UHGV virus genome: UHGV-0038492
Origin: a virus
Length of the DNA stretch: 64,000 bases
Reading direction: 5' to 3' (one strand)
The notes beneath the pieces are model-generated. The model was given only the letters and a program-made list of their open reading frames with translations. It was not told the DNA's origin and made no database searches. The position numbers and the translations under genes were made by a program. Positions 12,673 to 55,027 of this stretch are shown in pieces (the stretch's first letter is position 1; each line of letters starts with the position of its first letter).

Positions 12673-13944
12673 ATGGCAAATTTCGCAAAAACTCGCGCCG
12701 CTCGTGAATCAATGGAAGCGGCCGATGAAGTAATCGACGGTATCAGCAACGTTGAACCGGCAGAAGAGAACCTGGACGTCCAGCTTGCAGAAGTAGCCTC
12801 TATGGATGGTGAACTGGATCAGCTGGAAACTGACGGTGAAACTTTGGCCGCCGATACTGAGCGTACTGAAGACGCTATCGATCAGGCGGAAGAAGCCGTT
12901 GCTAACGGTGAAGAAATGCCGGAAGAAGCGGTTGCCCTGCACGAAGTGGCCCAGGAATCCATCGCACGTCGTTGGTGCCTGGAACGTACCAAACTGGCTC
13001 GTGAATCCTATCGCCGTGGCCGTGGCATGACTGCTGCTGCGCAGGAAGGCTGGAAAGAAACCCTGAAAGATCTTTACGATCGTTTCATTCAGTTCTGTAA
13101 AGAAGTGATTGCGAAGATCAAAGACCTGAAACTGAAATATTTCAACGTCGGTAAGACCGCACAGAAACGTGCGAAGAAATATCAGGAAATGCTGCGTAAG
13201 CTGGGCAAACAGAAGAAAGATGAAATCTCTGGTGGCTTTATCACCAAGCTGTCGATCGAAGGTAAATTCGATGCTGCTGGCTCTATCGCTATTGCGAAAG
13301 AAGTTACCGCTGGCAAAGCTAAAGGTTCCATCAGTGTTCTGGAAAAACAAGCTGGTGAAGCTGTGACCGCTGTGAGCAAAGGTGACGACGACGCATTCAA
13401 AGCAATGCGTGGCGATCAGCCGGTAGAACTGTTTGGTAAAGCGGCTTCTAAACTGCACACTCTGCCGAACTTTGAAAAAGGTGATGCGTCCAAACTGCTG
13501 GCTCTGCCGGGCAACGCATACGTTCAGGCTGGTACTAAAGAACTGGCTGGCGGTCACAAGTTCACTGCAATTGCATTCATGAGCACCGGTGACGCGTCTG
13601 AAGATAAAGACGTGAAAACTCCGTCCGTTTCTGAAATGGCTGGCGCTGCTTCTGCTCTGGAAGCAATCGGTAAAGGCTTCGAAGCTGTACTGAAAGATTT
13701 CCGTGCTTATGACGCTGAAATCGTGAAGCTGCAACAGGCTGCTGAGAAAGCTGCTACCGCACTGAATACCGAAAAAGACCAGAGCAAGTGGGATGGCCTG
13801 CGTAATGCACGTCAAGCTGCTGATTGGTCTGTGAAGAACTACCAGACCCTGAACCGCGCCGTTAGCTATGTTGCTAACACCGTTATTAGCGGTCTGAACG
13901 GCTACCTGGGTGCTGGTATCGGTGCTTACGAAAAATCTAAATAA
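12673..13944 (+). CDS. abundant protein, paralog A of tandem pair (putative high-copy virion/head internal protein with acidic N-terminal region)
   Basis: Strong RBS aaggaaa; codon usage strongly biased (ctg, cgt, ggt, aaa, gaa); shares N-terminus MANF.K..ARESME, core RKLGKQKKDEISGGFI and C-terminus GLNGY..AGI.AYEK with the next gene. Confidence 0.55.
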   Translation: MANFAKTRAARESMEAADEVIDGISNVEPAEENLDVQLAEVASMDGELDQLETDGETLAADTERTEDAIDQAEEAVANGEEMPEEAVALHEVAQESIARRWCLERTKLARESYRRGRGMTAAAQEGWKETLKDLYDRFIQFCKEVIAKIKDLKLKYFNVGKTAQKRAKKYQEMLRKLGKQKKDEISGGFITKLSIEGKFDAAGSIAIAKEVTAGKAKGSISVLEKQAGEAVTAVSKGDDDAFKAMRGDQPVELFGKAASKLHTLPNFEKGDASKLLALPGNAYVQAGTKELAGGHKFTAIAFMSTGDASEDKDVKTPSVSEMAGAASALEAIGKGFEAVLKDFRAYDAEIVKLQQAAEKAATALNTEKDQSKWDGLRNARQAADWSVKNYQTLNRAVSYVANTVISGLNGYLGAGIGAYEKSK

Positions 13945-14026: not shown

Positions 14027-15292
14027 ATGGCGAATTTCTACAAAAACAAAATTGCTCGTGAGTCTATGGAGTCTACTTCTACTGTAGTTCCAGACGGCAT
14101 CGAACTGCCAGCAGAATCTGTAGAAGGTACTCTGGCCGATATCGAGCATGACACCAAACCGATCGAAGCAATGGACGCAGACGCAGAGCTGCTGGCCGAA
14201 GACGGCGACGAAACCGATGCTCAGCTGGAAGTCCTGGACGAAGCTCAGGCTGCTGCTGACGGTGAAGGCGCTGAAGACGGCGAAGAGCCGATGGACGCTG
14301 AAGAAGACATGCCGGACGACGCTGCTAAAGCGCTGGACGTTGCTCAGGAATCCATCCGTTCTCGCTGGAACTTCGAACACCGTTCTTCTGTTGCTCACGA
14401 ATCCTACGGTTCTCGTAACCGCCGTCAGGTTGCTCGTGAATCCCTGTGGGAAGACATTAAAGCCTTCATGAAACGTATCCTTGATTGGCTGAAAGAACAG
14501 GGTCGTAAGATCAAAGATCGTTGGCTGAAATTCCACAACCAGGGTAAATCTATCCAGGCGCGTGCGAAGAAAAACGACGCAATTATCCGTAAGCTGGGCA
14601 AACAGAAGAAAGATGAAATCTCTGGTGGTTTCATTAAATCTCTGTCCATCGACGGTAAGTTCGTTGGTGACGACTCCACGAAACTGAAAGGTATTCTGAC
14701 CCAGGTTTCCAGCTTCTATAGCTCTAAAATGCCTTCTATGGCTGCTAAAGCCTCTGCCATGGTTGAAGATGTTACTAAAGGTAACGGCGCTAAGATTGAA
14801 AACCTGAAAGCCGAGTTCGGTGAACTGGCTAAACAAGATAATCTTAAGAACTTCAAGCTCGGTAACATGGCTGTTAAGTCTGAGTACGATAACGAAGGCG
14901 GTTTCTCCACTACCTTCGTTGAGTCTGAAAACACCGTTGAAACCAGCGTGAAAACTCCGTCTGTTGGCGATCTGGCTAAACTCAATGCCTTCTTCAACGA
15001 AGTGGGTAAACAGATTGAGAAGAACGTTCAGGATTATCGTAAAGTTGAAAGCGCACGTAAGTCTTTCGAAGACAGCATCGATAAGCTGCTGAAAGAAATC
15101 GACAAAGTTAAGATCGATGAAAAACCGGAACTGACCGAAAACGTGCGTCGCGCTCGTCGTTACGTTACCAGTGTTAACCAGGCTCTGTCTCTGGGTGAGA
15201 AAGTTATTGCTTCTACTCAGAAACATCTGGCTAACGGTCTGAACGGTTATATCTCAGCAGGTATTGCCGCTTACGAAAAGACTAAAGCTTAA
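14027..15292 (+). CDS. abundant protein, paralog B of tandem pair
   Basis: Same features as paralog A; 41 nt identical to 13195-13235 at 14588-14628; acidic N-terminal region; terminator follows. Confidence 0.55.
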   Translation: MANFYKNKIARESMESTSTVVPDGIELPAESVEGTLADIEHDTKPIEAMDADAELLAEDGDETDAQLEVLDEAQAAADGEGAEDGEEPMDAEEDMPDDAAKALDVAQESIRSRWNFEHRSSVAHESYGSRNRRQVARESLWEDIKAFMKRILDWLKEQGRKIKDRWLKFHNQGKSIQARAKKNDAIIRKLGKQKKDEISGGFIKSLSIDGKFVGDDSTKLKGILTQVSSFYSSKMPSMAAKASAMVEDVTKGNGAKIENLKAEFGELAKQDNLKNFKLGNMAVKSEYDNEGGFSTTFVESENTVETSVKTPSVGDLAKLNAFFNEVGKQIEKNVQDYRKVESARKSFEDSIDKLLKEIDKVKIDEKPELTENVRRARRYVTSVNQALSLGEKVIASTQKHLANGLNGYISAGIAAYEKTKA

Positions 15293-15366: not shown

Positions 15367-15408
15367 TCTCAGATAGATATTACCTTAGTGAGATTACGCT
15401 GTAATCTT
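15367..15408 (+). promoter_or_regulatory. conserved promoter-like element copy 1 (AT-rich box TATATTAC-like + palindrome)
   Basis: tctcAGATAGATATTACCTTAGTGAGATTACgctGTAATCt; one of five related copies, each 20-40 nt upstream of an ATG with SD. Confidence 0.5.
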
Positions 15409-15443
15409 TTAACGACCTGTTTATTACGTTTAGGAGAATTATC

Positions 15444-16226: not shown

Positions 16227-16532
16227 ATGAATCCGAGAGCCGACAGAATAGACGTGATACGTTTTGAAGAGTGTGAAACCGAGTACCAGGTTAAACGTAT
16301 CGAATTACGTTTAGTTATCCCTAAGCTAAACGAGCCTGAGTGGAACGGTGAGCTGATGGTACCGCTCGCCGAACCAATTAAAACGGGGGCAGGTGAGATT
16401 AATTATCTTCATTTAGAGGCGGCGGGTCGAAAAGTAACCGTTTGGCATCTTGCCGACGGTTACAAAACCAGTCAGCTTACACGTAAAGCTTTTATTCGGA
16501 AATTAAGAGAGTCGATGGGAGTTGTGAAATGA
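16227..16532 (+). CDS. hypothetical protein (101 aa)
   Basis: ORF starting 2 nt after previous stop; RBS ggaagg. Confidence 0.55.
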   Translation: MNPRADRIDVIRFEECETEYQVKRIELRLVIPKLNEPEWNGELMVPLAEPIKTGAGEINYLHLEAAGRKVTVWHLADGYKTSQLTRKAFIRKLRESMGVVK

Positions 16533-17065
16533 CAGTTACTGTATCTTTGATTGCAGCAGCGGGACTTAATAATGAAATAGGGAAAGACAATAAACTCCCT
16601 TGGCATATTCCCGATGACTTGAAGAACTTCAAAGCACTTACGTCAGGTAGGGTCATCGTGATGGGACGCAAGACGTGGGAATCGTTGGGGTATAAGCCCT
16701 TACCGAACCGACACCATGTTATCTTAACACGAAAACAAGGCGGTGTTCCTGATATCGACGGTGTGTTGAACCTTAAAGGTGATATGGGGTCGGTTATCGA
16801 GTTTCTCAAGAAAGAAGTTGTGGAGAAAGATTACCCGAAAGAAATCTTTATTATTGGCGGTGCAGAGATTTACCAACAAGCGATGCCTTATGCGGATAAG
16901 ATTTACTTGTCTCGTGTTGAGGTTAAGGTAGAGGGTGCGGATGCGTTCTTCCCTGAAATCGATCGCGATGAGTTTAAATTGACTTATAACTTAACACACT
17001 GCTCGAAACCAGAAAGTGGTATTCCGCGTTGGCATTATCAGATTTGGAAAAGAGATGGAAACTGA
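16529..17065 (+). CDS. frd: dihydrofolate reductase
   Basis: Translation SLIAAAGLNNEIGKDNKLPWHIPDDLKNFK...VIVMGRKTWESLG...IFIIGGAEIYQQAMP matches DHFR core motifs (compare E. coli FolA LIAALA..MPW..AD..WF, VIMGRHTWESIG, VIGGGRVYEQ). Confidence 0.93.
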   Translation: MTVTVSLIAAAGLNNEIGKDNKLPWHIPDDLKNFKALTSGRVIVMGRKTWESLGYKPLPNRHHVILTRKQGGVPDIDGVLNLKGDMGSVIEFLKKEVVEKDYPKEIFIIGGAEIYQQAMPYADKIYLSRVEVKVEGADAFFPEIDRDEFKLTYNLTHCSKPESGIPRWHYQIWKRDGN

Positions 17066-20842: not shown

Positions 20843-22161
20843 TGTCGTTTGGTCGGTTACAGAACATAGCAAACGTGCATATCGCACAAGCGGCGGGATT
20901 ACCGGCCATCGAATACGTACCTATCATTACGGTACGTGGCACAGTTATCAGCGTGTTTAAAACGTTGTCGATAATCCATGCCAGTAACTTCGCGCAGGAC
21001 TTAACGACCATCACCCATCTTACCGTGATGATACCGTTAAGCCAACAGCGTGTGTTAACGTCTTCCGCAGACGGGGATTTGTCCGTGAAAATTCTAATGC
21101 GGACAATGAACAAGAAAACCGTTGCGAAACTCGACTATCGGGGTATCGTCGTAAACAACCACGATCCCGACATGGAATCACCCACGATGTTCTTAGGTGA
21201 GTCTGACCAGAAAGCGTTAGCGGTCGTCACCCTGGAGCTGATGGACGAGTCAATGTGGTTCTTACGTTGCCGACAAGTCGGTGGGATTTATCACGAGACA
21301 GACGGTCTTAGTGTTGTTCGTGCACTGCTGTCAGATACGTTACCTACTGGTGATGCGCCAGAAGGTCAGTTGGTGGGCGTGGAATACGAGGAAGAGGAGC
21401 AACAACCGTATCGGGATATTTTGATTCCTGACTCGGAAAGTTTCTTGTCTGTGTTCGATTACCTTCAGAATCGTTACGGGGTTTATAGCCAAGGGCTGGG
21501 GGTGTTCCTTTACAAACACCGCTGGTATATTTTCCAACCTTGGGATTCTAAGAAGTTTTCATCAGCGAAGAATAAGCTGGTGATTATAAATCTACCGAAA
21601 GAGAAAGCAGCGTATCTGAATAAGACTTGCCACATTGACGGTGACGTGATTTACCTGATTTGTGGGGGTGATGTACACACCTTCGAAGATAAAGACTCCT
21701 TAGCACTAAACCAAGGTACCGGTTATCGTGTGGGGTCTATCCGTGCGTTGGATGGTCGTGCGTCCTCGTTCTCGTCAGGTGATGTTTCTGCTACAACGTC
21801 TGATTCGTTCGTGTCAGCGGCTGACCCGACGCAATATCCGGGTGGGGTAGTTAACGCACCAATTGACCCGAACCAACACTTCTCGGACACAGATAAACCG
21901 CAACGGTCTAAGTTAGCGGCGGCGAAAGGAACGCTAACCGCAACAACCTGGAACGCATCAACGTATGGCCTACTCCGTCCGGGGATGGCAGTAAAATACA
22001 TTTATGCGAATAACTATGGTGTATACACGCGTTACGGAACATTGGTTGCAGAAGTTTTCCAAGGTGCAATTGATGGCGGTTCAGCGGCTTCACCACGGTT
22101 TAATACCATTAGTCAGTTGACGTTGTGGCTGACTAATGAAAATTTTACATCCACAACGTAA
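20842..22161 (+). CDS. hypothetical protein (439 aa)
   Basis: ATG overlapping previous stop (TAATG); RBS aaaggggagg. Confidence 0.65.
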   Translation: MSFGRLQNIANVHIAQAAGLPAIEYVPIITVRGTVISVFKTLSIIHASNFAQDLTTITHLTVMIPLSQQRVLTSSADGDLSVKILMRTMNKKTVAKLDYRGIVVNNHDPDMESPTMFLGESDQKALAVVTLELMDESMWFLRCRQVGGIYHETDGLSVVRALLSDTLPTGDAPEGQLVGVEYEEEEQQPYRDILIPDSESFLSVFDYLQNRYGVYSQGLGVFLYKHRWYIFQPWDSKKFSSAKNKLVIINLPKEKAAYLNKTCHIDGDVIYLICGGDVHTFEDKDSLALNQGTGYRVGSIRALDGRASSFSSGDVSATTSDSFVSAADPTQYPGGVVNAPIDPNQHFSDTDKPQRSKLAAAKGTLTATTWNASTYGLLRPGMAVKYIYANNYGVYTRYGTLVAEVFQGAIDGGSAASPRFNTISQLTLWLTNENFTSTT

Positions 22162-22193
22162 GTTATGTCGACAGCAACCTAAAGGATTTGTTA

Positions 22194-22994
22194 ATGAGCA
22201 ATTTACTTACTTTCCGCATGTCTGGTCAAACGTTAATGCAGATTGACGAGTACGAAAAAGAACATTTCGCTAAACCGTCTAAACTGTTAGAACGTTGCTT
22301 AAAGGTTATTCCAGGCGGCGAGCATTGTCAGCTAGATTTCGTCATGGCGTCTTCTGCTGACAAAACGGTCTCTGTTATCTACACGGTTGACGGAGTACAG
22401 GGCCATCGCTTATTACCGATTGAAGAAAAAGGTTCTTTGGGTAATTTGTTGTTCTTGCACGCAATCACGACAGCGGTAGTGACGGGTGCACTGGAAGCAC
22501 AGTACGGTTTCGCGTATTGCTATTTCTACGCACAGAAGCTGGCGAATGCGGTAGTTCCAGGAGAGCCGGAAACGTATCCGAAGTATATCGAACGTTTGCT
22601 TCCGACACACTTTGCTGAGTCTGACGACTATGAGTTCAATGCTTTCCGTTTCACGATGATTGGCGAAGCGCGCGATCCTGAAAACACCATTGCGTTACGT
22701 GCCGTTGTTCGTTACGCGGTAATTTCGTCTGACAGCGGAATGGCAAGCAACTTCAACGAAGTGTTCCCGGTTATGCAACTCGGTCCGTATATCACGTTTA
22801 ACGCGTACGTACCGTTTACTTGTCAGTTAATCGGCCCGCAGGATAACGATTCTATCCTCCCGATTACTGAAGAGAAAGGTCTGCATATTCGTGACGCCGT
22901 AGAAGTCATCAACGATAAACGTTTTACGATCTCATCGAAAAGCGGCATTGCTGATGAAGAACTTGCGGTCGTGAACAAAATGCAAGTGATGTAA
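22194..22994 (+). CDS. hypothetical protein (266 aa)
   Basis: ATG 22194 with RBS aaagga 7 nt upstream (track start 22188 is TTG). Confidence 0.6.
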   Translation: MSNLLTFRMSGQTLMQIDEYEKEHFAKPSKLLERCLKVIPGGEHCQLDFVMASSADKTVSVIYTVDGVQGHRLLPIEEKGSLGNLLFLHAITTAVVTGALEAQYGFAYCYFYAQKLANAVVPGEPETYPKYIERLLPTHFAESDDYEFNAFRFTMIGEARDPENTIALRAVVRYAVISSDSGMASNFNEVFPVMQLGPYITFNAYVPFTCQLIGPQDNDSILPITEEKGLHIRDAVEVINDKRFTISSKSGIADEELAVVNKMQVM

Positions 22995-22998
22995 AATT

Positions 22999-23040
22999 AT
23001 CCCGTTACCTTTGTGGGTAACGGGATGTCCTTTTATTTAC
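22999..23040 (+). terminator. Rho-independent terminator
   Basis: Stem tcccgttacc / ggtaacggga then tgtccttttatttac. Confidence 0.7.
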
Positions 23041-23158
23041 TCGTAAATGCGTCTTAGACGCTGTTTTACACCTTAAGACGATTAATGGTGTTTAAAAAAT
23101 AAAAGGTCGTCAGAATGCGATACAGCGCGTTTTAGAGGGTGTTTTAATTAAAATATTT

Positions 23159-23199
23159 TCAGATATATATTACTTAGGTGAGAGAATTACGTAATACTC
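23159..23199 (+). promoter_or_regulatory. conserved promoter-like element copy 2
   Basis: tttcAGATATATATTACTTAGGTGAGAGAATTACGTAATACtc with palindromic AATTACGTAATA. Confidence 0.5.
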
Positions 23200-23230
23200 A
23201 TTTATCGAATACCTAATTAGGAGCTATATC

Positions 23231-23374
23231 ATGATTTCTGTAAAACACAAAAAAGCTATCTTCGCTGTTGTTATCGCTGTTGTTCTGGGTTGCCTGTACC
23301 TGGATATCGACAAAGGCTACGACACTTGCATCGACAACGGTAATTCCGTTGCACAGTGCACTGGTCGTGGTTAA
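23231..23374 (+). CDS. small putative lipoprotein (47 aa precursor)
   Basis: RBS aggag 8 nt before ATG; hydrophobic N-terminus ending in lipobox-like VLGC; mature part has 3 Cys; highly biased codons; flanked by promoter-like element and terminator. Confidence 0.5.
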   Translation: MISVKHKKAIFAVVIAVVLGCLYLDIDKGYDTCIDNGNSVAQCTGRG

Positions 23375-23380
23375 TGTATA

Positions 23381-23410
23381 AGGCACCTTCGGGTGCCCTT
23401 AATTTTTTAT
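23381..23410 (+). terminator. Rho-independent terminator
   Basis: aggcaccttcgggtgccctt then aatttttta. Confidence 0.75.
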
Positions 23411-23428
23411 CTATTGGAGTATTTTTAA

Positions 23429-24244
23429 ATGAAAACTATCAAAGACTATTTTCCGACTGGCATCAGTAGCGACCATTTCGTACCAGCGGATTCGATGGAA
23501 ATTATCAGCAAGTCCAGTAGCGGTGAGTTTGTTATTTACCTAACTAATGTAGGAGGTAGACCGAGTTTCATTCTCCTCGAGCCTAAAGAAATAAGTGTCT
23601 GTACGGTTGCTGTAAATGTTTCTTGCGGCCTTAGCTGGTTGAAGTCCAGGCTGTTACGCTTGCTCGTGGTTAATACTGACCCAGCAGTACGCTTAGAGCG
23701 ATTAAAAGCAATGAATGAAGTTATCCTGGGTTTTCTGCTACATCCTATTTACGGTAACCCTAAAGTCGCAGAAGCAATACAAAACGTACAGTTAGTAGAG
23801 TGGAGTGATATTAACTACGAGCGTGCCTCCGAATTTGTATTACAGGCAGACGACAACACCGGTGTGTTCTCACAAACGTTGGATAACGTAACGGTAACCG
23901 CGCGTGTGTTGTTTGGTTTACAACGCGTAGAGTTTGAATTGAAACACGTCTACGTGAGCAATGAGCCAGAGATGGTGGAAACGTTGATTCGTGCGTTCGC
24001 ATATCCGTTAGACGGTGAATGGGAACAGCAGATTAACGGAGCGTTGGAAGCCATGCATTTCCTGGCTCAAACGTTAAGGAAGGATGAGAAATTGAAAGGT
24101 CGTGTTTATCCAGAACACGATTTTGTTTGTGAAGAATGTGGGGCACAGTATCAAATCCGTGTTCCTTTAACCGGCCTAACATTCCCGCAAGCCAACGTGC
24201 AATGTAAGGAATGTGGCCATGTTCAATACGTAGCGATTAAATAA
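23429..24244 (+). CDS. hypothetical protein (271 aa) with C-terminal CxxC...CxxC zinc-ribbon-like motif
   Basis: ORF with RBS ggag; C-terminus CEECGAQYQ...CKECGHVQY. Confidence 0.6.
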   Translation: MKTIKDYFPTGISSDHFVPADSMEIISKSSSGEFVIYLTNVGGRPSFILLEPKEISVCTVAVNVSCGLSWLKSRLLRLLVVNTDPAVRLERLKAMNEVILGFLLHPIYGNPKVAEAIQNVQLVEWSDINYERASEFVLQADDNTGVFSQTLDNVTVTARVLFGLQRVEFELKHVYVSNEPEMVETLIRAFAYPLDGEWEQQINGALEAMHFLAQTLRKDEKLKGRVYPEHDFVCEECGAQYQIRVPLTGLTFPQANVQCKECGHVQYVAIK

Positions 24245-24248
24245 AAGC

Positions 24249-24296
24249 AACCCCTAATCCCGAAAAGGATTAGGGGTACACTTTATTTATTTTCGC
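24249..24296 (+). terminator. Rho-independent terminator
   Basis: Stem acccctaatcc / ggattaggggt with loop cgaaaa, then T-rich tract. Confidence 0.8.
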
Positions 24297-24320
24297 AATT
24301 TCAACATAGGAGAAAAGTTC

Positions 24321-24479
24321 ATGAAACATGAACAGTTGTTTCAAAGGTTAAACGAGTTGTCCGTAAAACAGCTCGAATTTCAACGAAGGGTTAGTGAAAT
24401 AGCGCAACCAACGTTAACTCAGCCCAAAGTTGCTTATCCAAGAAACACCCAGTTGATAGTTGAAAGGAGAAGTAACTGA
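24321..24479 (+). CDS. small hypothetical protein (52 aa)
   Basis: RBS aggagaaaag before ATG; own downstream terminator hairpin. Confidence 0.35.
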   Translation: MKHEQLFQRLNELSVKQLEFQRRVSEIAQPTLTQPKVAYPRNTQLIVERRSN

Positions 24480-24485
24480 TAAAAA

Positions 24486-24516
24486 CAAGGGGGTGCTGCC
24501 ACACCCCTTTTTTACG
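24486..24516 (+). terminator. Rho-independent terminator
   Basis: aagggggtgctgccacaccccttttttac. Confidence 0.65.
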
Positions 24517-24633
24517 CTTTAACTTTTCCAAAGAGAAGTTAAAGCAGTAGGGGATGACCGACATCCCCTACTGTACGGTGCCAACGCATAAAGACGTTGG
24601 CGTTTCTTACAACGTTACTAAAGGTAATGAAAA

Positions 24634-24804
24634 ATGAACGATTATCAATTACAGATGTTTAATGCGGCGATGCGTAACCGTGAAAAACAAATTCAGTTCA
24701 ACCAACGCATGGATGAATATGTTCGCCTCGGTCTTGTTGCGGCACCTAAAACATCTAATAACCAGAATATACAGCAACCCTATGTAAGGAGAACTGGCTA
24801 CTAA
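24634..24804 (+). CDS. small hypothetical protein (56 aa)
   Basis: RBS aaaggtaatg before ATG 24634; followed by GC hairpin 24816-24837. Confidence 0.35.
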   Translation: MNDYQLQMFNAAMRNREKQIQFNQRMDEYVRLGLVAAPKTSNNQNIQQPYVRRTGY

Positions 24805-24941
24805 TTAACTAATACAGGGGGTGCACTACCACCCCCTACTTGGTTCAGTAGTTGACTTTCGTTCATAATTATTAGATGTCTTGTTTTTTTTGCTTTTCAG
24901 GACGCATAAGGGGTCGTAGGGGGAGCCGAAGCTCCCCAGAC

Positions 24942-26504
24942 TCAAAAGAGTTCGTCACCCATACCGCCTGTAAAGACGTTAATCGACGATGCAGTCACTG
25001 TTTCTTCTTTATCGCAATCCCAAGGCAGAATGCCAACTTCACGGAAAGGTATTACTGTATAATGGTAAGCTTCTTTAGTATCGATAATTGTACGGTGTTT
25101 ACCACGTTGTACTTCTAAGTAACTATGTCCATTGACAACACGTTTGTTAAAATACATCTCACCGTCAGCTTCGTTATCCAAGCTGGAGCAGTTATCGTAA
25201 AGACCGCGACCTGGTAAGTTCTTACAGAAACTTGCTGGGTCTAACGCTTTTAATTTTTTGCCTTCTGGTGAGATTTGGTGTGGTGCTAACAAGAAACCAC
25301 GGTTACGTACTACCTGGATGTTTCGAGCGATACGATAAATTTCTTTAATGTCGCTACCGGCAATCCCGTTACCGTGACCTGCTTTACTGATAGTCCCGAA
25401 ATAGTCTCCGCGAATCCCAGCTACATGATAACCTCGACGCTTTAAGTCCAGTATTAAGTCGTTTAAGTAGTGTATTTTAAAATCTGAGTTTGTGTGTTTC
25501 TGAAAGATGTATTCCCAACCGTTAGCCCGCATTTTACTACAGAGGTAGTCCGACATTTTTGTGTTGTGTAAAGCTTTCTCTTCGTCGGTAGCGTTTTCAG
25601 AAGCAACCATAACCGGTGCTTCACCTTCAAAATGACCGTAGAGCGCTTGGTACGCATACGCCAAGTTAACGTCCAGTTCGTTCTCTAAACTTAAATCGAG
25701 AATAACCGGCTGCAAATCCCCTTTAACATTTTCCATTACTTTTTCGGGTGTATTGAATACCGGAATACTGATAGACAACAACAGACTAAAAAGTGATTTA
25801 CAGTTAAAAGGCAGTGCAGGCATTAACCAAAGCTCTTCGGTAATCCCTTTGTTACAACCCAGCATCTGGTTAATGGCTTTCCATCCGGTACGTAAACCGT
25901 TACCCGCTGCTTTCTTACTGATGGAGTCGAACACATGCACGAACGGTGCACGGTTATCCGTAATAAGCTCGCCTACGAGTGAGGGAATCTTATTATGAGA
26001 GCGTTCACTGAACGTAGAGAGACTATCTCTGAGGTCGTTGAGCGCCGTTTGTAAATCAACGCGCGTTTCGGTTCCGTTCAGTGCGCCTAACGTACGACCT
26101 AATTTTTGTTTCAGTTGTACGCCTTGAATAGCTTGACGTAATTGGAAGTAGTATTGTGCTACTTGACGGTTAAGATGCTCGATGCGTGCTTCTGGTTCTT
26201 CTGGAATATCATCTTCCAGGAATTTGGTAATCGTATCGTATAGAGGACGTATTTGCGTAGTGGCCAACTTCAAACGTTTCATGACGTTTGTGTGGTCGTA
26301 AGGCATACCGCCGTCTATGATGGATGTGATGATATCCTTGATTTCGACGAGGGCGGCACGTTCGTCACCTTCCTCTACGTAATCAGGAAGCTTAGCCTCT
26401 AACAGCACTTTTCTTATGACCTCATGATCCTTCTCAGGGTCGGTCAACAGACTTTCAGTGTATAGTGTGGCTAATGCGGTTATCAACATCATTTTGTTAT
26501 TCAT
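24942..26504 (-). CDS. hypothetical protein (520 aa)
   Basis: Long minus-strand ORF; hairpin ggggagc/gctcccc just downstream of its stop; hydrophobic N-terminus. Confidence 0.6.
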   Translation of the reverse strand: MNNKMMLITALATLYTESLLTDPEKDHEVIRKVLLEAKLPDYVEEGDERAALVEIKDIITSIIDGGMPYDHTNVMKRLKLATTQIRPLYDTITKFLEDDIPEEPEARIEHLNRQVAQYYFQLRQAIQGVQLKQKLGRTLGALNGTETRVDLQTALNDLRDSLSTFSERSHNKIPSLVGELITDNRAPFVHVFDSISKKAAGNGLRTGWKAINQMLGCNKGITEELWLMPALPFNCKSLFSLLLSISIPVFNTPEKVMENVKGDLQPVILDLSLENELDVNLAYAYQALYGHFEGEAPVMVASENATDEEKALHNTKMSDYLCSKMRANGWEYIFQKHTNSDFKIHYLNDLILDLKRRGYHVAGIRGDYFGTISKAGHGNGIAGSDIKEIYRIARNIQVVRNRGFLLAPHQISPEGKKLKALDPASFCKNLPGRGLYDNCSSLDNEADGEMYFNKRVVNGHSYLEVQRGKHRTIIDTKEAYHYTVIPFREVGILPWDCDKEETVTASSINVFTGGMGDELF

Positions 26505-29406: not shown

Positions 29407-29438
29407 TTGGATAGATATTATCAAAGGGAGACTGTCAG
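29407..29438 (+). promoter_or_regulatory. conserved promoter-like element copy 3 (divergent variant)
   Basis: ttggATAGATATTATCAAAGGGAGActgtcag; shares the AT-rich box and GAGA half-site but the palindrome is degenerate. Confidence 0.35.
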
Positions 29439-49676: not shown

Positions 49677-49717
49677 CAGATATATATTACCTTAGTGAGA
49701 TTACACAGTAATCTCTT
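49677..49717 (+). promoter_or_regulatory. conserved promoter-like element copy 4
   Basis: tcAGATATATATTACCTTAGTGAGATTACacaGTAATCTC with perfect 8 bp inverted repeat GAGATTAC/GTAATCTC. Confidence 0.5.
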
Positions 49718-54668: not shown

Positions 54669-54957
54669 TACTGATGAGTCCAATATACAGCGCTTGCAAC
54701 GGGCACTAACTGCGCCTCTAGGCGGCGAGATTCACGATCGTTGGGTAATTGCGAGGGTGGTAGAGATTGATTATTCTCAGGGACAGTTAATGTTAAATAA
54801 CTGCTCGACGAACGTGCCTTTCACGTTACCGCGCGATATATTCCGTCTTACGCCCAACGTTGATGAAATACTGACAATTGACAGGAAACTTCTATCGATA
54901 GAACTTCAGCATTTCCCCCTGCCTGGTAAGTCGGTTAACATTGCTTTGTCCAGTTAA
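54655..54957 (+). CDS. hypothetical protein (100 aa)
   Basis: ATG 54655 with RBS gggga 5 nt upstream, overlapping upstream gene by 14 nt (track start 54478 rejected). Confidence 0.45.
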   Translation, partial: QNRTNTDESNIQRLQRALTAPLGGEIHDRWVIARVVEIDYSQGQLMLNNCSTNVPFTLPRDIFRLTPNVDEILTIDRKLLSIELQHFPLPGKSVNIALSS

Positions 54958-54970
54958 CGGTCTAAAAAAT

Positions 54971-55004
54971 TTAAGATATATTTCATCTATGTGAGAATTC
55001 TCAC
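54971..55004 (+). promoter_or_regulatory. conserved promoter-like element copy 5 (variant)
   Basis: ttaAGATATATTTCATCTATGTGAGAATTCTCAC with perfect palindrome GTGAGAATTCTCAC. Confidence 0.4.
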
Positions 55005-55027
55005 TTAACTAAATGGAGTAATCTAAA

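Follow-up and report, generated by a model that had tools for sequence, protein, structure and literature searches.

Small envelope proteins of several kinds are among the closest described counterparts of the gene product treated here. Imm and Sp of phage T4 and Llp of phage T5 are phage exclusion or protection factors, and Llp, an early and abundant small lipoprotein with a functional disulfide, is an established exclusion device. MgrB, an enterobacterial membrane peptide of 47 amino acids (aa) that inhibits PhoQ, is predicted to carry a type I or a type II signal and is actually an inner-membrane peptide; its C16A substitution is silent, and two periplasmic cysteines, C28 and C39, are essential (PMC2789325, PMC8404706). 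For the nucleus-forming jumbo phages, the group in which the phage described here is placed below, a review mentions exclusion in general terms and names no factor (PMC12908238), and a limited full-text literature search yielded no superinfection-exclusion factor or early small envelope protein of known function. The present analysis concerns a 64,000-nt stretch of the virus genome UHGV-0038492 (the window) and, within it, a cassette at 23156-23409 made of a phiKZ-type early promoter, a 51-nt leader, a 47-codon open reading frame (ORF) and a hairpin/T-run terminator. The explanation that we find best overall, and to which we give about even chances, is that this is an autonomous early cassette for an uncleaved inner-membrane peptide with a periplasmic disulfide hairpin and a role in exclusion or protection.

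The 47-residue gene and its expression signals

The ORF, MISVKHKKAIFAVVIAVVLGCLYLDIDKGYDTCIDNGNSVAQCTGRG, lies on the plus strand at 23231-23374, with its TAA stop at 23372-23374, and encodes 47 aa that are predicted to form a basic cytoplasmic N-terminus (residues 1-8), a hydrophobic helix (9-24) and an exported tail (25-47). Its cysteine codons are at 23291-23293 (Cys21), 23327-23329 (Cys33) and 23357-23359 (Cys43). The peptide matches phrog_8574, a family listed as 'unknown function', with E = 3.4e-23 and residues 1-47 aligned to profile positions 1-47; among its members are YP_009153360.1 of SPN3US, ChrisDB gp82, Machina gp80, Wellington gp81, Asesino_84 and Kwan_81. A single-sequence search of a 5.8-billion-protein collection recovered the peptide's own cluster alone, and an alignment-based profile search gathered 36 clusters with members of 45-51 aa. 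Across seven phage genera the synonymous sites of the gene are near saturation (proportion of synonymous differences, pS, 0.45-0.8), and over the last 20 codons of six homologs that end in TGRG the nonsynonymous proportion, pN, is 0.09-0.30 against a pS of 0.33-0.95. In close relatives all five variable sites are silent third-codon positions. The ORF is a real gene under purifying selection and not a chance reading frame, since about 36 sequence clusters conserve it and the variation among close relatives is entirely silent; an antisense ORF at 23213-23386 was dismissed because every variable site is a third position of the plus-strand frame.

The codon adaptation index (CAI) of the ORF, computed with Escherichia coli weights, is 0.85, the highest of the 57 ORFs in the window. 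The median of the 56 long ORFs is 0.30, and the highest among them, the major capsid gene, stands at 0.71; just 0.6% of the 46-codon windows taken from these genes attain 0.85. Capsid and internal head proteins are known abundant proteins, and as an internal check of the index the next three values belong to the capsid gene (0.71) and to two internal head proteins (0.69). The homologs range from 0.48 to 0.69, against about 0.3-0.5 for most of their neighbours and 0.65-0.70 for their capsid genes. A preliminary description of this DNA, made from the letters alone, had spoken of high codon optimisation and capsid-like usage, and the gene in fact stands above the capsid gene. Very high translation of the peptide would be expected from these values.

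Upstream of the gene stands an element of a kind well described in phiKZ-like phages, whose early motifs have been given as TATATTAC for phiKZ, ...TATATTACDWHDGTG for 201phi2-1 and TTTCARRYAKATATTATYWAAGTGWA for N1M2/OBP (PMC7058600). In AR9 the early promoter was mapped experimentally as AAATATATATTAT-(6N)-G, the G being the start (PMC5312081), and such early motifs have been assigned to the virion-carried RNA polymerase (PMC7598289). The window element, of the phiKZ-like (chimallivirus) early type, occupies 23144-23179 on the plus strand and consists of an A/T-rich stretch, TTTC, AGATATATATTAC and a 6-nt spacer; the 13-mer core lies at 23161-23173 and the full element, TTAATTAAAATATTTTCAGATATATATTACTTAGGTGAGA, at 23144-23183. 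It is copy 2, as the preliminary description had already numbered it, of a four-copy family whose members (15354, 23144, 49661 and a weaker one at 54957) are all on the plus strand and all intergenic, and it matches the early motifs of phiKZ, 201phi2-1, N1M2/OBP and AR9. Each of the seven phages compared has one such motif upstream of the small-gene operon, with 70 to 1339 nt separating it from the ATG, and in the window phage and SPN3US the small gene is the first behind it. The TATATTAC-type core, the A/T-rich upstream part, the intergenic position, the coding strand and the presence of several copies support, at the level of motif, assignment to the early class that the virion RNA polymerase of phiKZ-like phages would read. 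An early class is also argued for by the operon behind copy 1, because its gene at 16529-17065 looks by eye like a dihydrofolate reductase (MTVTVSLIAAAGLNNEIGKDNKLPWH...), which is typical of early genes.

By the motif-to-start spacing of AR9, transcription would begin at the G at 23180, giving a 51-nt, A/U-rich 5' leader on the plus strand (23180-23230). The leader contains the Shine-Dalgarno sequence AGGAG at 23219-23223, 7 nt ahead of the ATG, the site that the preliminary description had called textbook. Past the stop codon, an intrinsic terminator on the plus strand (23382-23409) is formed by a GGCACC/GGTGCC stem of 6 bp with a UUCG loop (23382-23397), followed by CTTAATTTTTTA with six T at 23403-23408; it folds at -11.6 kcal/mol (z = -2.5) and shows the G+C-rich hairpin directly preceding a U-run that is expected of such a signal, in line with the strong terminator first proposed. 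An equivalent terminator follows the homolog of Machina, whereas SPN3US, ChrisDB, phiEaH2 and Wellington lack one, and in these the next gene begins no more than a few bases from the stop codon. All elements of a self-contained promoter-gene-terminator unit were thus located in their expected places, and the early-class promoter, the expression signals and the codon usage together point, as had been proposed, to a very highly expressed early gene.

Some further observations touch these signals. Read by eye, the ribosome-binding regions across the phage group share an extended context, (A/T)TCGAC(T/C)ATCAAGGA (L002 2100-2125, 2318-2342 and 2925-2950), and the window cassette carries a related ATCGAATACCTAATTAGGAG at 23205-23225. 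A variant motif, GGATAGATATTATC, is present at 29409-29422, past the terminator of the capsid gene, and similar GAGATAGATATTATC motifs stand directly downstream of, or one gene past, the capsid gene in phiEaH2, Wellington and Machina; these may form a second promoter sub-class.

Predicted membrane segment and cysteine-bracketed tail

Four positions are invariant in the family, C33, G37, S39 and C43 (C-x3-G-x-S-x3-C), and the family-defining motif is [DG]-Y-x-x-C-x-x-N-G-[NH]-S-x-x-x-C-T-G-R-G. It outlines a module of 14 residues that is bracketed by cysteines, with a conserved Tyr three residues upstream, an NGNS turn in most members and a TGRG end. AlphaFold2, run on the family alignment, predicts a helix at 4-35, a turn at NGNS and a helix at 40-44 (pLDDT 86). 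In the best reading of these patterns, the C-terminal module and not Cys21 would be the functional part of the peptide.

A full HMMER pass over 1.8 billion representatives brought together 19 proteins, none with a known function. One group consists of further small one-helix peptides with the same C-x9-C on phage-like contigs, and another of three larger, non-phage metagenomic proteins (P0041, P0046 and P0047) in which the module is present as 4-5 tandem repeats. Their repeat unit is Y-x-x-C-[RI]-x-x-G-x-S-x-x-x-C, exemplified by AYNTCIGNGNSASQC in P0041 against DTCIDNGNSVAQC in the window peptide, and two of the three begin with signal-peptide-like N-termini. The module is a separable, undescribed hairpin that is presumably closed by a disulfide. 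A search with the four P0041 repeats returned no matches, and neither module nor peptide has a significant match in Pfam, NCBIfam, PDB sequences or Foldseek/PDB.

Matches below significance were found, and they bear on the idea that the gene encodes a lysis-related or membrane-damaging peptide, namely an o-spanin, a holin or antiholin, or a thionin- or Hok-like toxin for host shut-off. Weak matches to Rz-like spanin PHROGs (E = 0.04-0.18), a distant relative that adjoins an M23/ChW peptidase gene on a phage-like contig, Pfam Thionin matches of the repeat proteins just below the cut-off, and crambin and viscotoxin among the non-significant Foldseek matches would all be in keeping with it; however, every supporting match is below significance, and the thionin, crambin and viscotoxin matches were not used. 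An Rz1-like o-spanin was rejected: the peptide has no proline and no partner i-spanin, neither Cys21 nor the lipobox is conserved, no annotated neighbour is named spanin, and the downstream gene encodes an unrelated 271-aa protein. Entericidin and Hok/Gef were likewise set aside, neither Pfam family being listed at E up to 10 for any of seven homologs, and so was a holin, on the Pfam and PHROG scans. Moreover, a holin or a lethal toxin would call for the reverse of an early promoter with very high expression, and we regard a lytic or toxic function as very improbable.

The nature of the N-terminal half is less straightforward. The preliminary description had read the product as a lipoprotein precursor; its direction to the envelope is upheld, and the attachment of a lipid is what the data put in question. 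The N-terminus does have the n- and h-regions of an export signal, with K5, K7 and K8 followed by the uncharged A9-G20 (12 residues). The VLGC sequence, with V at -3 and an atypical L at -2, fits a relaxed PROSITE-type pattern but not the strict lipobox [LVI][ASTVI][GAS]C, which fits no family member. The mature part, announced as 26 aa with three Cys, would count 27 residues from Cys21, and three Cys only if that of the lipobox is included. Cysteine at column 21 is not a conserved trait, being present in 15 of 36 family representatives and lacking in SPN3US (AFAV), phiEaH2 (VTVG), Machina (AFGS) and EarlPhillipIV (LFGT), and it varies even within one genus, where ChrisDB has it and Machina does not.

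Hydropathy was compared with that of MgrB, Lpp, Pal, OmpA and EcnB. An uncharged run of 15-22 residues is found in all family members but one, and the 19-residue hydropathy maximum has a family median of 2.28, which is nearer to the 2.74 of MgrB than to the 1.7-1.8 of the signal peptides of Lpp, Pal and OmpA. The six residues past column 21 are hydrophobic (+0.6 to +1.2; LYLDID averages +0.63 and the family +0.95), whereas those after the Cys of the lipoproteins Lpp, Pal and EcnB range from -0.45 to -1.8, so that the polar mature N-terminus of a lipoprotein is not seen. Before the helix, a cytoplasmic motif x-H-K-[RK]-A-I is conserved, with His6 in 21 of 36 members and in 11 of the 15 that have Cys21; this argues against cleavage, since a discarded signal peptide would not need such a motif. 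On hydrophobicity and conservation, residues 9-24 are thus somewhat more probably an uncleaved inner-membrane anchor than a cleaved signal.

A true lipoprotein would instead receive a diacylglycerol on Cys21 from Lgt and be cut after Gly20 by LspA; the resulting 27-residue lipopeptide, because its residue +2 is Leu and not Asp, would be carried by Lol to the inner face of the outer membrane, where it would block a receptor or entry in the manner of T5 Llp or Cor. The sequence conforms to the relaxed rule, having K/R among residues 1-7, six uncharged residues ahead of the box, one of [AGS] at -1 and its Cys at position 21. The 12-residue h-region is typical of such signals, and Cys21 turns up in several sub-lineages, among them those of the window phage, ChrisDB and Wellington/Kwan; the Llp precedent itself speaks for this possibility. 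Nevertheless, 21 of the 36 relatives lack Cys21 and keep all else, the Pfam lipoprotein-attachment models gave no match listed at E up to 10, L is found at -2 and not at -3, and MgrB shows that the same kind of prediction can fail for a 47-aa peptide. For T5 Llp and Cor in particular, the peptide has no annotated PHROG or Pfam match, and the lipid anchor is not conserved in the family.

Several facts do weigh against an uncleaved anchor. The hydrophobic run of the window peptide is just 16 residues long and ends at D25; of the 15 members with Cys21, 14 have A or G just before it, which is what a true lipobox calls for; the Kwan homolog goes by the name 'Lipoprotein' in UniRef; and members without the Cys have small residues at -1 and -3 (AFA|V, AFG|S), with which cleavage by signal peptidase I would be compatible as well. 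The choice between anchor and cleavage is, besides, one of simple hydrophobicity and conservation arguments. Lipidation of Cys21 in this lineage is accordingly held to be possible though doubtful, with release by signal peptidase I taking up the small remaining share. The two modes may not be far apart, as Cys21 might turn the anchor into a lipid anchor in this lineage, a step that the family does not need. More generally, to call a very small peptide a 'lipoprotein' on the strength of a pattern can mislead, and the UniRef label shows that one homolog already bears the name.

Identity between lineages and genomic setting

Two lineages of the window phage are represented in IMG/VR, by 3300045988_095954 and by 3300029126_000001, and comparison with the more distant one (L004/L006) singles out the cassette. 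The 6-kb neighbourhood is 71-74% identical between them, and the longest stretch with at most 3% mismatch, 253-254 nt at 23155/6-23408, coincides with the cassette from the promoter core to the terminator. In this island the small ORF has a pS of 0.03-0.06 and a pN of 0, against a pS of 0.62-0.72 in the flanking genes and 0.29 in the capsid gene; the leader is identical at 48 of 51 positions and the terminator at 35 of 36, and the spacer just upstream of the cassette is 70-72% identical. The early cassette behind promoter copy 3, taken as a control, keeps the promoter core alone (leader 56-60% identical, ORF pS 0.46-0.51), and the near-identity is therefore specific to the cassette at 23156-23409. 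Extreme codon selection can account for the silent sites and cannot account for the leader. Two explanations remain, a recent exchange of the module between lineages or an unusually strong constraint on every part of it.

Such retention of leader, terminator and silent sites, so much greater than in the control cassette, could also reflect an RNA function, the transcript being a dual-function mRNA and small RNA that acts alongside or in place of the peptide. In the wider family, however, pS is near saturation and the peptide is conserved, the transcript folds barely better than shuffled sequence (z = -1.8), and no Rfam family matches it. Extreme codon selection together with recent recombination is the simpler account of the island, and an RNA function appears highly unlikely.

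Other features of the region behave differently between the lineages. A second zone of high identity (0.92-0.97), at 24079-24229, covers the Zn-ribbon-like 3' end of the 271-aa gene, just before a bidirectional terminator, and the region that follows it directly, at 24279-24480 with a 52-aa ORF, is essentially unalignable (0.1-0.3). Most early transcripts would open with a short stem-loop at the predicted start (window 15390-15410, 49697-49716 and 54993-55006; L001 ~2885-2902; L002 ~2085-2104), and at promoter copy 3 this stem-loop is preserved between the two lineages by compensatory changes, GAGATTAC...GTAATCTC versus GAGAGTTA...TTAACTCTC. At copy 2 it is weak (dG -1.5, z = 0) and is not claimed as part of the cassette. 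Outside the island, a box on the plus strand at 23129-23140, GTTTTAGAGGGT (GTTNTAGAGGGT), stands about 20 nt upstream of the A/T-rich part of the promoter; the window phage, SPN3US and ChrisDB each have a single copy of it, in the same position, and the loci of phiEaH2, Wellington, EarlPhillipIV and Machina have none. Possible roles for it are those of an operator, a regulator binding site or an auxiliary promoter element. In SPN3US the spacer at this place has several CTCTAAA-like repeats, as read by eye.

Gene content places the source as a new species-level relative within the SPN3US/phiEaH2 group of giant, nucleus-forming jumbo phages of enterobacteria. The helicase, encoded on the other strand at 24942-26504, shares 84% identity with its counterparts in Erwinia phage phiEaH2 and Salmonella phage SPN3US, and comparison with SPN3US, ChrisDB, phiEaH2, Wellington, EarlPhillipIV and Machina revealed a common gene order: a virion protein, a 268-aa gene, the small gene, variable small genes, the helicase on the opposite strand and the capsid gene. 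It is from this identity and this order that the placement follows, and the small gene is syntenic in every SPN3US-like jumbo phage examined. A megablast of 22000-25000 against 50,697 phage records gave nothing beyond a 40-nt match in SPN3US-like jumbo phages, and that match is the promoter element. Upstream of the cassette, the 268-aa gene ends at 22994 and has its own terminator at 22998-23027, followed by a 160-nt spacer; downstream, the 271-aa gene (23429-24244) starts 20 nt past the T-run and is preceded by GGAG alone, with no promoter recognised ahead of it. Elsewhere in the window, the two paralogous internal head protein genes (phrog_2497), at 12673-13944 and 14027-15292, contain a 185-nt direct repeat, D1.

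The same jumbo phage (95-97% identity over 22000-25000) has been deposited as a circular 222-kb 'plasmid' in NZ_CP173450.1 and NZ_CP134650.1, from a urine isolate of E. coli and a gull isolate of Enterobacter ludwigii. The contigs recorded for one member of the peptide's 90%-identity cluster number at least 1000 and reach 238 kb, and members of that cluster also appear by name in assemblies of Salmonella and E. coli. These records suggest that a nucleus-forming phage supposed to be lytic may persist in a carrier state or by pseudolysogeny.

Proposed role and described counterparts

From these elements a course of events can be proposed. The virion-carried RNA polymerase would start transcription at about 23180 from the phiKZ-type early promoter; the short A/U-rich leader, the strong Shine-Dalgarno sequence and near-fully optimal codons would lead to very high translation; and the hairpin/U-run would end most transcripts right after the gene, at about 23409, so that the downstream 271-aa gene would depend on read-through. 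The 47-aa product would insert in the inner membrane with its N-terminus in and its C-terminus out, residues 9-24 serving as uncleaved anchor and about 22 C-terminal residues forming a periplasmic tail, in which oxidation of C33 and C43 would lock a helix-turn-helix hairpin on the C-x3-G-x-S-x3-C core. The outcome would be an abundant, stoichiometric envelope factor made immediately after infection.

As for what this factor does, we tentatively favour superinfection exclusion or protection against lysis from without, by analogy with T4 Imm and Sp and T5 Llp, a possibility that nonetheless stands well below even chances. It is preferred because an early, abundant, envelope-exposed peptide fits the profile of phage exclusion and protection factors. 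Against it, searches of Pfam, PHROG, NCBIfam, PDB and Foldseek disclosed no relationship to Imm, Sp, Llp or Cor, nor to any other characterised protein. As for the proposed early timing, codon usage like that of the capsid gene would be just as compatible with expression late or throughout infection, driven by a second promoter that escaped detection. A bolder and rather improbable version would make this extremely abundant early peptide the first of a new class of envelope effectors in jumbo phages, in which the disulfide-locked module binds a periplasmic or membrane target and closes the cell to infection or disarms an envelope defence, the cassette is exchanged between co-infecting lineages, and the anchor switches freely between a transmembrane helix and a lipid.

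An anchored peptide might also act as a mimic-type regulator like MgrB, SafA or MzrA, binding a host sensor kinase or another envelope complex through its periplasmic or transmembrane part and thereby shutting off or triggering a host response in the course of takeover. The architecture of MgrB is matched point by point, in the length of 47 aa, the basic N-terminus, the helix Cys within V-L-[AG]-C and the two conserved periplasmic Cys 10-11 residues apart. Against such a role, there is no sequence relation to MgrB (Pfam PF13998): hhalign gave a probability of 14% over 13 columns of the transmembrane part only, and no Pfam match to it is listed at E up to 10. In addition, the regulator of a low-copy sensor would not need codon optimisation at the level of the capsid gene, and we consider this role unlikely.

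The promoter and the terminator are ordinary for the phage group, and the gene family is known though uncharacterised; what is new is modest and consists of the C-x9-C module, the optional lipobox and the cassette-sized island of identity. Even so, a gene of 47 residues that is conserved across the SPN3US/Erwinia group, has a recognisable early promoter and ranks by codon usage among the most strongly expressed of its phage is a cheap and well-defined candidate for an exclusion factor or early small envelope protein of nucleus-forming jumbo phages. If the peptide does block entry, this would bear on the use of such phages in cocktails, and could bear on the recurrence of the phage as a 222-kb extrachromosomal element in many clinical isolates.

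Taken together with described systems, the locus shows both shared and distinct traits. The homologs of phrog_8574 are as long as the window peptide, occupy the same place, with the 268-aa gene on one side and the helicase on the other, and have the invariant C-x3-G-x-S-x3-C core. What sets the window version apart is the strongest codon optimisation, a place directly behind the promoter, a terminator of its own and the optional Cys21. With phiKZ-like early promoters the window element has in common the core TATATATTAC, the A/T-rich upstream part and GTG/GAGA at the predicted start, and like them it is intergenic, follows a terminator and is repeated several times on the coding strand; it differs from that of AR9 in that the start site was mapped there and is predicted here. 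Like morons, the cassette has its own promoter and terminator and is a unit of sequence identity between diverged genomes, but the small gene, which every relative examined has at this locus, is no accessory insertion, and its promoter is of the phage-polymerase early type and not a host sigma-70 one. T4 Imm and Sp, T5 Llp and Cor of phi80/N15 resemble the peptide in being small, early, exported or membrane-bound and stoichiometric at the envelope, yet the peptide shares no sequence or fold similarity with them, and the lipobox of its family is not conserved. Compared with MgrB, the peptide has a different loop motif, is phage-encoded and is apparently far more abundant; the two are alike in their 47 aa, in a single N-in/C-out helix (a topology that is predicted for the peptide), in an ambiguous type I/II prediction, in a dispensable helix Cys and in two periplasmic Cys.

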